From Escherichia coli (GTDB taxonomy: Bacteria; Pseudomonadota; Gammaproteobacteria; Enterobacterales; Enterobacteriaceae), in assembly GCF_048403405.1 (NCBI RefSeq), contig NZ_CP183129.1: a stretch of 64,000 nt of DNA. One strand, written 5' to 3'. The position numbers are program-made. Shown piece after piece: positions 36,201 to 39,200 of the stretch (position 1 is the first letter of the stretch; every line of letters starts with the position of its first letter).

Positions 36201-39200
36201 CGCGGAGGCGCTTAACAGTAAGATCAGGCTACTGAGGATAAAAGCCAGGGGATACCGAAATCGGGAGCGCTTTAAGCTGGGCGTGATGTTCCACTACGGG
36301 AAACTGAATATGGCGTTCTGAGCCTTCCCATCATGATCAGGGAAAACCCATGTATCATCAGGTTATTATGTGAGCTGGTAAATCAGATTTTGCATGGACT
36401 GAAATCATGCTGTTATTTAGGGATAAAGAACCGGCTTTTTGTCCCGCCCCCTCGCCATTAATGAGAAAAAGAATGGAATGCTCCCTCTGAGGAGAAGGGC
36501 AGTAGAAAAAAGAACCCGCCAGCAAAAATATTGGGGATGAACAGCTTTCGCTACTCAGATTGCTGGCGGGTATAGTTCCTCATGAAATAAAAATACTACG
36601 TAGTCTTTTTAATGCAAATGATAATCATTGTCAATTGTTTGTGCGTGTTTTCTTCATACATGATTGGTAGTAAAGGTGATTCAGGCTATCAGTTTTTGCT
36701 GATGATCTTTTTATCTATAGAAAACATCAGCCAAGCTGGTTGGTTCAGTAACGCTTTCATCTTTGAGCATTTTATAAAAAATTCTTGAATTGTTAAAATA
36801 GATTAAAGTCTGGTAACAGCAAAAGTTAAACGAGAAATCAAAAGGAGGTCCCAAATCTGAAAATGAAGCATCTGCGTGATGATGTTGCAGCGGGACGTCG
36901 TCGGCTGTATATCAGAGCAATCTGTCCATCCCTGCGTGAAGCCCCGTTACTTTATTCGTACCCCTTATAATGGGGTGTTAGCCAGCCAGACCCGGCATGA
37001 TTACTGTGAACCGCCCCGGGAATCCTGGAGACTAAACTCCCTGAGAAAGAGGTAAACAGGATGACTAAAAATACACGTTTTTCCCCCGAAGTCCGTCAAC
37101 GGGCAGTTCGTATGGTTCTGGAAAGTCAGGACGAATATGACTCACAAAGGGCGGCAATTTGTTCCATTGCTCCAAAGACTGGCTGTACGCCAGAGACTCT
37201 GCGTGTCTGGATTCGCCAGCATGAGCGGGATACCGGGGGCGGTGATGGTGGGCTCACCACCGCTGAACGTCAGCGTCTGAAAGAGCTGGAACGTGAAAAT
37301 CGTGAACTGCGCCGCAGTAACGATATCCTTCGCCAGGCTTCCGCTTATTTTGCGAAGGCGGAGTTCGACCGCCTCTGGAAAAAATAATGCCACTGCTGGA
37401 TAAGCTGCGTGAGCAGTACGGGGTCGGACCGGTATGCAGTGAACTGCATATTGCCCCGTCAACGTATTACCATTGTCAGCAGCAGAGACATCATCCTGAT
37501 AAACGCAGTGCCCGTGCGCAGCGCGATGACTGGCTGAAGAAAGAGATACAGCGCGTATACGATGAAAATCATCAGGTGTACGGTGTGCGTAAAGTCTGGC
37601 GTCAGTTGTTACGGGAAGGAATCAGGGTGGCCAGATGTACAGTGGCGCGCCTCATGGCGGTTATGGGACTTGCCGGTGTTCTCCGGGGTAAAAAGGTCCG
37701 CACTACGTCAACCGGAAAACCGTTGCTGCAGGTGACCGCGTAAACCGTCAGTTCGTGGCAGAACGTCCTGACCAGCTGTGGGTGGCTGATTTTAATTACG
37801 TCAGCACATGGCAGGGCTTCGTCTATGTGGCGTTCATCATTGATGTGTTTGCCGGATACATCGTGGGGTGGTGGGTCTCATCGTCTATGGAAACGACATT
37901 CATGCTGGATGCGCTGGAGCAGGCGTTGTGGGCCCGCCGTCCGTCCGGCACCATCCATCACAGCGATAAAGGCTCTCAGTATGTGTCACTGGCCTATATG
38001 GAGCGATTAAAAGAAGCAAAACTGCTGGCATCAACAGGGAGTACAGGCGACTCGTATGACAACGCGATGGCGGAGAGCATCAATGGTCTTTACAAAGCGG
38101 AGGTAATACACCGTAAGATCTGGAAAAACCGTGCAGAAGTGGAACTGGCCACACTCACGTGGGTGGACTGGTATAACAATCGACGATTGCTGGGAAGGCT
38201 GGGCCATACTCCTCCGGCAGAAGCAGAAAAAGCTTATTATGCTTCCATCGGAAACAATGATCTGGCAGCCTGAGTTCACAGATAAAACACTCTCCAGGAA
38301 ACCCGGGGCGGTTCAGTAATATCTGATCGTAACGGACGGACGCTGGAATTAACCGATGACCGCAGCACAGAGAGTAGGGGATGCGGACAGTCAAAGATCG
38401 TGGAGTTGGATTTTATAAATCTGTCTCCAGTAGTAGATGAACTGAATACAAAGTTGCCAGAGAGTGGTCTGTCAGGCAGGGAATCAGAAACCGGATATTA
38501 TTGACTGGTACATTGTGTCGGGCTGTGTACGTTCTCCCCGGACAGACAGTCTCAGTTCGTAGAATCTATAAATTACTGCTACTGATGCTGCCGGGGAAAG
38601 GTGTAACGAAAAAGCAGCCTCCGTTACCGGACAGCAAGAAGGCTGAATGAAGTTTATGGCGTTTGTATTTTGTAATGTCTGGCCATGCAGTAAATCCAGA
38701 CAGGTTTTTATTATCATGTGAAGTATTCTGCCATAAAATACTAAATTTCTATTTTGTGATGAATGCTGCAAAATTGAATCTGTACTCTGATGTAACTTTT
38801 ATCTGTTTCAGTGAAGCATGCCCACAGATTGAGTTATTAAGTTGTGGAAGAACAGCTCTGCCCCGCCTGCTTCTCTCCTTTCAGAAACCAGTATGTTGCC
38901 ATGCCCCGTCTTAATGGTGAGCGCTGAACCATACCTGCTTTTTCCAGTAATAACAGGTAATAGCGGGCCTGGTAATCCGTTACCGCCAGCGCCTCTGCAA
39001 TTTCTGCCGTTTTCCCTCCATCATGCCTGTTCAGAAATTCCAGTATTTCATTCTTCATATATTCACTCATCTCACTGTAACAAAGTTTCTTCGAATAATA
39101 AAAATCATGCTCTCTGTTATCAACGGAAAGGTATTTTTATTCTCTATGTTTGCTTTATTTGTTCAATTTAGTGAATTTGCTTTTTATTGGATTTATTTGA

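Follow-up and report, generated by a model that had tools for sequence, protein, structure and literature searches.

Introduction

Fur and the small RNA (sRNA) RyhB together form the textbook iron circuit of Escherichia coli. Another classical design is that of OOP of phage lambda, a short antisense RNA with its own promoter and terminator, which is controlled by a host repressor. According to a 2025 review from the authors who mapped Fur by chromatin immunoprecipitation and sequencing (ChIP-seq) in E. coli CFT073, RyhB is the only Fur-regulated sRNA of this species. Mobile DNA, on the other hand, has yielded PasA and PasC, which are validated Hfq-dependent prophage sRNAs of enteropathogenic E. 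coli (EPEC) E2348/69 (Pearl Mizrahi et al. 2021, PMC8550237; Zhu, Shabalina & Storz 2026 preprint), and Esr41 (RF02676), an island-encoded sRNA of enterohaemorrhagic E. coli (EHEC) that represses chuA, cirA and bfr. Here we analyse a stretch of 64,000 nucleotides of E. coli DNA, hereafter the window (contig NZ_CP183129.1 of assembly GCF_048403405.1), in which the interval 36216-37006 holds a candidate Fur-repressed sRNA gene of prophage origin.

A preliminary description of the window had left this interval as an unassigned spacer with an 11-bp perfect inverted repeat and a possible short open reading frame (ORF), and had offered two ideas for it: a terminal region of an ISL3-family insertion sequence (IS), or a small RNA. 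Both the repeat and the frame are present, and the second idea gains support, as a candidate, from a minus-strand promoter, a Fur box, a terminator and a published Fur ChIP-seq peak. We give a little better than even credence to the view that a Fur-repressed, prophage-derived RNA of about 96 nt is made here from the minus strand.

A candidate Fur-repressed transcription unit

Over its 791 bp the interval is 100% identical to DNA of E. coli CFT073, ATCC 25922 and related uropathogens, and it is located in a pheV-type pathogenicity island, flanked by the rcrARB genes and the pap operon, with hly, iha, sat and the aerobactin genes nearby. The binding of Fur in CFT073 was mapped by ChIP-seq by Banerjee et al. 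(mBio 2020, PMC7157518), whose Table S5 gives a peak at NC_004431 3,440,893, with an amplitude of 3620, assigned to "c3597 transposase". The window runs antiparallel to the CFT073 chromosome, position p corresponding to 3,441,311 - (p - 36216), and the peak falls on position 36634, which is the first base of a -35 element and lies 2 bp outside a Fur box. In the same study, the amplitudes of yjjZ, iroN, ybtP and iucA are 5300, 2115, 1445 and 341, respectively, so that the site ranks among the strongest that have been published for Fur in uropathogenic E. coli.

Agreement with the consensus extends to 16 of the 19 positions in the Fur box, a match for which the pattern search expects 0.04 chance occurrences per window; in the ColV and prophage alleles it covers 13-15 of 19 by our count. 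The box overlaps a predicted sigma-70-type promoter on the minus strand (Table 1), and this overlapping site is occupied by Fur in vivo in CFT073. The -35 element, TTGACA, agrees with the consensus at all six positions and is invariant among the nine alleles that we compared, drawn from E. coli chromosomes, ColV plasmids and 45 IMG/VR prophage contigs; the spacer measures 17-18 nt in all nine. The hexamer deviates from the Fur consensus (TTGATA) precisely toward the -35 consensus of sigma-70. The sole other near-consensus Fur box of the window, GATAATGAGAATCATTATT at 10731-10749, is the aerobactin (iucA/shiF) box, and the same 19-mer is given in Table S5B of PMC7157518.

On the minus strand, the promoter stands about 45 nt upstream of the inverted repeat, whose arms CCCGCCAGCAA (36515-36525) and TTGCTGGCGGG (36560-36570) enclose a 34-nt loop, and whose stem gains one A-T pair (36514/36571) to reach 12 bp. 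Folded on this strand (-28.9 kcal/mol, z = -5.0), the hairpin has an inner stem built with G.U and U.G pairs, which cannot form on the plus strand, and it is followed by UUCUUUUUU. The plus-strand fold (-27.3 kcal/mol) retains the outer stem only, with no T-run after it. In eight of the nine alleles the tract reads TTCTTTTTTCT or TCCTTTTTTCT, and in the ninth (L035) it is one T shorter. We propose that the repeat is the Rho-independent terminator hairpin of a minus-strand RNA; a GC-rich stem and a U-tract follow the predicted promoter at a distance of ~100 nt on that strand. A Fur box, a perfect -35 element with correct spacing and, ~95 nt downstream, a U-tract terminator coincide on one and the same strand.

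No other segment of the prophage module is as well conserved as the hairpin: with its T-tract included, identity is 97% to the ColV allele and 95.5% to the prophage allele, against 80-87% in the flanks. Only three single-base changes, in two alleles, were found in it across the nine, and standard pairs occupy 98% of the pair cells across eight alleles. The window is in fact enriched in perfect inverted repeats with arms of 11 bp or more and loops of up to 60 nt, of which it has 10, versus 0.73 expected from Markov-1 simulations, and a lone 11-mer repeat is by itself not improbable; the repeat at 36514-36571 is taken to be more than chance because the hairpin is conserved. The other nine start at 1404, 10090, 18768 (twice), 24258, 28956, 31195, 40587 and 55506, and they are probably terminators or IS ends. 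A simple scan also flagged GCATGGACTGAAATCATGC, with TGTTATTTAG after it, as a terminator-like hairpin on the plus strand at 36392-36410; this part of the module is well conserved and lies downstream of the predicted sRNA terminator.

In the mechanism that we propose, transcription would start from the promoter TTGACA-17 nt-TAAAAA (36634-36606) and would end at the hairpin and its U-tract (36571-36506). The predicted RNA, corresponding to the CFT073 plus strand at ~3,440,927-3,441,022, would begin with a variable 5′ end and continue through a single-stranded, U-rich stretch that is conserved (AUUCUUAUUUCAUGAGGAAC) to the terminator. When iron is present, Fur-Fe2+ would occlude the promoter, whereas under iron starvation the RNA would be produced and may then regulate by base-pairing, probably aided by Hfq, through the U-rich stretch that precedes the terminator. 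Made from an intact prophage, it would also be antisense over its full length to the late transcript, at a point just ahead of the holin gene. Inside the predicted sRNA there is also a 10-codon ORF, MRNYTRQQSE (36583-36551, minus strand), which is open in all nine alleles and has a conserved UAG stop; the stem change of the ColV allele is synonymous in this frame, its residues vary (NY, KF, NH, NF, SY), and it has no Shine-Dalgarno sequence.

Neither c3597 nor its neighbours c3593-c3602 appear in the differential-expression tables of the fur mutant, which cover annotated genes only, and the site is undiscussed in that work (PMC7157518). A very strong Fur site with no responsive annotated gene is the pattern to be expected if a short transcript, missed by annotation, is brought to an end by an efficient terminator. 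CFT073 has a second strong Fur peak without a regulated gene, at c4561 (4,333,067, amplitude 1730), which borders a 1.26-kb unannotated stretch. In this region (L064, CFT073 4,331,500-4,334,500) no Fur box was found within 3 mismatches, and its sequence is unrelated to that of the module.

Several observations weigh against a Fur-repressed RNA. The -10 element, TAAAAA, matches only four of the six consensus positions and has no T at -7, a base that is usually conserved, which is the reason why a simple promoter scan did not list the promoter. Two stem variants disagree on the strand, since the change in the ColV allele leaves A.C on the minus strand but G.U on the plus strand, and that of the L106 allele does the reverse. 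The 5′ single-stranded part is conserved no better than the flanks, and covariation, sought in 8-10 alleles, was absent because the stems are almost invariant. A target search, in which duplexes with 31 island genes were computed, returned nothing above background (best z = -2.6). Two scans of 100,044 species-representative genomes gave no true homolog: most of their 39 pattern hits came from unrelated organisms rich in GC, and the three from enterobacteria that we inspected lie in unrelated sequence. In these genomes, no homolog outside E. coli-type mobile elements was found. Moreover, strong Fur ChIP sites with no regulatory output do exist.

It could then be that no sRNA is made at all, and that the hairpin is a structural element of the phage late region, for instance a processing or stability site of the late mRNA or a bidirectional terminator insulating the lysis genes, accompanied by a functionless "orphan" Fur site in decaying prophage DNA. 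The near-equal energies of the outer stem on both strands and the lack of covariation fit this explanation, as does the ~85% conservation of the entire 362-bp module, a level to be expected of phage modules in general. Of the 349 Fur peaks of CFT073, about half fall outside intergenic regions, and direct regulation extends to only 57 operons. However, an amplitude of 3620 is within the range of genuine Fur promoters, the Fur box, -35 element and terminator fall together on the same strand, and the hairpin has been selectively conserved even where the lysis genes disappeared from a remnant long ago, as shown by the ColV and island copies, which differ by 13%. We regard this alternative as unlikely, yet serious enough to be kept in mind.

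A further alternative places the Fur-controlled transcript on the plus strand. A -10 element GATAAT within the Fur box (36620-36625) would drive an RNA of ~80 nt ending at a second hairpin of the module (36684-36712), either alone or as half of a divergent pair sharing the Fur box, and 36514-36571 would in that case lie upstream of the transcript or belong to the late mRNA of the phage. GATAAT matches the consensus at five of six positions and keeps A-11 and T-7 in all alleles, and the ColV stem variant retains pairing on the plus strand only. In prophages the second hairpin is a textbook terminator, with a perfect 9-bp stem and a T6 run (z = -3.35 in prophage L005). No allele has a usable -35 element for this transcript, though (2/6), and the hairpin has decayed in the window (z = -0.8). 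It is also present in a Stx1d phage, that of strain 2014C-3075 (L105 2255-2640), where the holin leader with its plus-strand hairpin lies directly downstream of stx1d B and unrelated sequence takes the place of the Fur box and the sRNA body. Because this phage lacks the Fur box and keeps only the leader, we assign the hairpin to the holin leader and not to the Fur unit, and we see the two as separable modules: the Fur box travels with the RNA body, and the plus-strand hairpin with the leader. A plus-strand transcript, single or divergent, seems to us improbable, and the minus-strand sRNA is the reading kept in what follows.

The prophage module and its distribution

The module that would encode the sRNA is 85% identical to positions 4890-5252 of L005, an intact lambdoid prophage in which this segment lies between the DNA methyltransferase and holin genes. 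In intact prophages the module is placed directly upstream of a class II holin gene. It is 87% identical to a remnant adjoining iss in the ColV plasmid L004. A plus-strand coding reading, based on a 63-amino-acid ORF annotated in L005 over the hairpin region, was considered and rejected, as in the window it has no ATG, stops early and differs at ~14 of 36 codons.

Among 5426 complete E. coli genomes, 1430 carry the module, which is found at 919 places on chromosomes and 643 on plasmids. In PLSDB, 574 plasmids have it; most of them are conjugative and most come from Escherichia, others being from Klebsiella, Salmonella or Shigella. It is also present in 45 prophage contigs of IMG/VR; the INPHARED phage collection gave no match to it. 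One of the IMG/VR contigs (L063) bears two identical sRNA modules, at 155-237 and 1435-1517, 1280 bp apart.

A mosaic of mobile-element remnants

Judged by sequence similarity, the interval is a patchwork of five mobile-element remnants, followed by an IS3-family element (Table 1). The preliminary description had seen it as lying between two IS remnants, which is correct, and as matching nothing recognisable, which does not hold: each of its bases is assignable to a known kind of mobile DNA, and the interval itself contains pieces of three IS (ISL3, IS200 and IS110-family).

Table 1. Features of the candidate transcription unit and of the surrounding mosaic (window coordinates)
Feature	Position	Strand	Description or basis
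Predicted sRNA, ~96 nt	36505..36600	-	Inferred from promoter and terminator positions
Predicted sigma-70-type promoter	36606..36634	-	-35 TTGACA (36634-36629), 17-nt spacer, -10 TAAAAA (36611-36606)
Fur box GCAAATGATAATCATTGTC	36614..36632		Overlaps -35 element and spacer
Terminator-like hairpin (the inverted repeat)	36514..36571	-	12-bp GC-rich outer stem, 8-bp inner stem, GAAA loop
U-tract UCUUUUUU	36506..36513	-	Sequence, directly after the hairpin
Hairpin GGCTATCAG...CTGATGATC-TTTTT	36684..36712	+	Leader terminator of lost holin gene, degraded in the window allele
ISKox3-like ISL3-family IS remnant	35583..36350	+	Pfam PF01610, PGAP, alignment to plasmid ISKox3 copies
Lambdoid-prophage late-region module, 362 bp	36351..36712		Similarity to prophage L005 and ColV plasmid L004
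IS200 left-end remnant	36713..36854	+	Rfam RF01405 STnc490; similarity to IS200C
Internal fragment of phage Rz (i-spanin) gene	36853..36943	+	Pfam PF03245; similarity to RzpD of L005
IS110-family left end, first 63 nt	36944..37006	+	Identity to prophage contigs including L010
IS3-family element	37007..38273	+	PGAP; left inverted repeat begins TGAACCGCC; transposase frameshifted

The first remnant has lost its N-terminus, has a frameshift near 36178-36215 and a stop codon at 36321, and finishes at a right end near 36350. Two PF01610 matches cover it, at 35583-36212 (E = 5e-38) and 36178-36318 (E = 2e-7), as the C-terminus of the transposase runs on in a different frame to the stop, and the Prokaryotic Genome Annotation Pipeline (PGAP) labels it "ISL3 family transposase, frameshifted, missing N-terminus". 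Plasmid copies of ISKox3 align with the window at 90-91% and stop at 36349-36353. The idea of an ISL3 terminal region is thus right for 36216 to ~36350 and wrong for the inverted repeat, which starts at 36514. That the repeat belongs to an ISL3 terminus might be suggested by the transposase remnant ending just upstream of it, but from 36351 onwards the match is to prophage sequence with no adjoining ISL3. The repeat lies 165 bp past the ISL3 end and in prophage-derived DNA, so we do not take it for an IS terminus and give that reading next to no credence.

Two junctions of the mosaic, that between prophage and IS200 left end and that between IS200 left end and Rz, are also present in the ColV plasmid copy; since this copy is 13% diverged, the composite must be old. 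The part of the prophage that corresponds to the IS200 position, ~1.7 kb with the holin and lysozyme genes and the first half of Rz, is missing in the window.

The IS110-family left end, truncated by the insertion of the IS3-family element, is 100% identical to L010 1798-1863 and to four further prophage contigs. In L010 this segment is followed by a 398-amino-acid ORF with DEDD_Tnp_IS110 (E = 7e-49) and Transposase_20 domains, while in the window only 63 nt remain and no DEDD transposase gene follows them. The element entered the phage region independently in the two cases: in L010 it occupies 1797 to ~3250, between the start of the holin gene and the sRNA module, in the window it comes after the Rz fragment, and both insertion sites end in ...CCCC. 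The IS3-family element holds an ALIL programmed-frameshift pseudoknot at 37342-37458 (120.9 bits, Rfam).

On the other side of the interval, minus-strand genes for DUF1471, TetR and DUF417 proteins at 33701-35031 are rcrA-rcrR-rcrB (c3599-c3601), the hypochlorite-resistance operon of uropathogenic E. coli (PMC9600549). They are oriented as the predicted Fur-controlled promoter, 1.6 kb downstream of it, and are absent from the fur-mutant tables.

The IS200 left end and the 35-codon reading frame

The Rfam model STnc490 (RF01405) matches positions 36722-36844 with 65.5 bits, above its gathering score of 56. Over its whole length the remnant shares 76% identity with the left end of IS200C from E2348/69, a similarity that ends exactly at the A of the tnpA ATG, and it holds the left-end terminator hairpin, the stem-loop of the tnpA 5′ untranslated region and the tnpA Shine-Dalgarno sequence. 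These features agree with the two hairpins of the STnc490 model, which represent the left-end terminator of IS200 and its Shine-Dalgarno-sequestering leader (PMC4513863). The tnpA gene for the Y1 transposase and the right end of a complete IS200 are not present, and Rz DNA follows the point of the ATG. The "STnc_490" annotated on pS88-like plasmids (PMC12370729) is probably the same remnant.

The AAGGAGG motif (36842-36848) that had been noted before the short frame is inside this left end, and it is therefore the orphaned Shine-Dalgarno sequence of tnpA. The frame itself, 35 codons at 36863-36970 beginning MKHLRDDVAAGRRRLYIRAI, starts 14 nt after the GGAGG, a gap that is long for Shine-Dalgarno spacing. 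Its phage-derived part is 84% identical in DNA to L005 6950-7039 and 76% identical in amino acids to residues 82-106 of the 153 of RzpD. The PF03245 match barely exceeds its cut-off (25.5 versus 25.4 bits) and spans profile positions 53-75 of 126 only, and a full-length domain with an N-terminal transmembrane anchor was not found.

The open frame, the strong Shine-Dalgarno-like motif and a protein accession in many genomes (WP_023140939.1) might suggest a functional small protein. Such a product would nevertheless lack the N-terminal membrane anchor and the C-terminus of Rz, its final 9 codons come from the end of the IS110-family element, and its putative ribosome-binding signal, borrowed from tnpA, is sequestered in a stem-loop in IS200; in CFT073, PGAP marks the frame as a pseudogene. 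A functional protein is thus highly improbable. The ORF described earlier does exist as an open frame, yet as an internal Rz fragment that has come to follow the Shine-Dalgarno sequence left over from a truncated IS200 tnpA, a fusion artefact that is very unlikely to be a gene. PGAP names the 35-amino-acid fragment inconsistently, as "lysis system i-spanin subunit Rz" in ATCC 25922 and ST131, as "hypothetical protein" in other strains, and as an incomplete "hypothetical protein" (pseudogene) in CFT073.

Comparison with known RNAs

The Rfam scan that had been recommended for the region, run at permissive thresholds, let only STnc490 and ALIL pass, both away from the repeat, and matches to Esr41, isrD and ctRNA were terminator-like noise. 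At the predicted sRNA, the best sub-threshold scores were 17 bits for isrD (gathering 37) and 16.5 bits for Esr41 (gathering 102). Literature searches, both by exact sequence in full texts and by keyword, yielded no description of the candidate RNA. Two described RNAs were discarded: PapR of UTI89, which lies outside the pap island and is activated by Lrp, and svsR, which is located at the 3′ end of cI.

The Rfam family represented in the interval is that of the IS200 left end, STnc490 (art200; Ellis et al. 2015, PMC4513863), with which it shares both hairpins and the tnpA Shine-Dalgarno sequence. Unlike the complete element, the remnant has no tnpA, art200 promoter or right end, and it is unconnected with the inverted repeat.

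With lambda OOP, the candidate shares the plan of a short, self-contained prophage transcription unit antisense to a phage mRNA. OOP is found at cII and the candidate in the late region, the controlling repressors are LexA and Fur, respectively, and there is no homology between them. If the proposal is right, iron starvation would be tied, in intact prophages, to the control of the lysis cassette by antisense pairing with the late transcript.

The closest known RNAs, by position, are PasA and PasC, which occupy the same slot of lambdoid prophages, next to the holin/lysozyme operon (L005 compared with L006 and L007 of E2348/69). They lie directly upstream of a class II holin gene and are transcribed away from it, from the opposite strand. 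They have in common with the candidate a TTGACA -35 element, an RNA of ~80-100 nt and a GCCAGC...GCUGGC terminator followed by a U-run, and the seed of PasA also overlaps the GCCAGCA arm. BLAST detected no homology to them (E > 1), and a covariance model of the predicted sRNA gave 12.8 bits for PasA and 11.4 bits for PasC, which is not significant (E = 0.3-0.7), even though these two ranked at the top among E2348/69 loci with 11-13 bits. The Pas promoters differ in having no Fur box, and the Pas genes lie almost exclusively on chromosomes, with enrichment in EPEC and EHEC, whereas the module is common in the islands of extraintestinal pathogenic E. coli and on ColV plasmids (the 643 plasmid places). 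Because homology could not be shown, we class the candidate as Fur-repressed and PasA-like in its working, and under no named family. Should it prove real, the slot upstream of phage holin genes would be seen, further, as a nursery of host-acting sRNAs.

Esr41 offers a parallel in setting and role, being encoded on a horizontally acquired island that also carries iha and acting in iron homeostasis. Its weak Rfam alignment with the candidate follows the same order of parts, namely a 5′ hairpin, a U-rich stretch and an CGCCNGCA terminator. The candidate is not a member of this family because its score stays so far below the gathering score.

The functional class proposed for the candidate is that of RyhB, which it would resemble in a Fur box over the promoter, a length of ~90-100 nt and an intrinsic terminator with a U-tail. 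The very strong Fur peak of CFT073 that was filed under a dead transposase would find a concrete and testable explanation in an sRNA gene that annotation has missed. About one in four complete E. coli genomes carries the module, which lies within a major virulence island of uropathogens, near pap, iha, sat and aerobactin, and on ColV virulence plasmids. If the RNA exists, it may be an iron-responsive regulator specific to extraintestinal pathogens, tying host iron starvation to a post-transcriptional programme of virulent lineages. If it does not, the locus is ordinary mobile-element debris whose anatomy still corrects annotations such as that of a 35-amino-acid "Rz i-spanin". Between the candidate and RyhB there is no sequence or Rfam similarity, and RyhB is a Hfq-dependent RNA of the core genome, whereas the candidate is on mobile DNA. 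Tentatively, and with less confidence than we place in the transcript itself, we suggest that RyhB is not the only Fur-repressed regulatory RNA of E. coli, and that a second one, unrelated to it, is spread on mobile DNA: in lambdoid prophages, in the pheV-type island of uropathogens of sequence types ST73 and ST131, and on ColV/pS88-type virulence plasmids next to iss.

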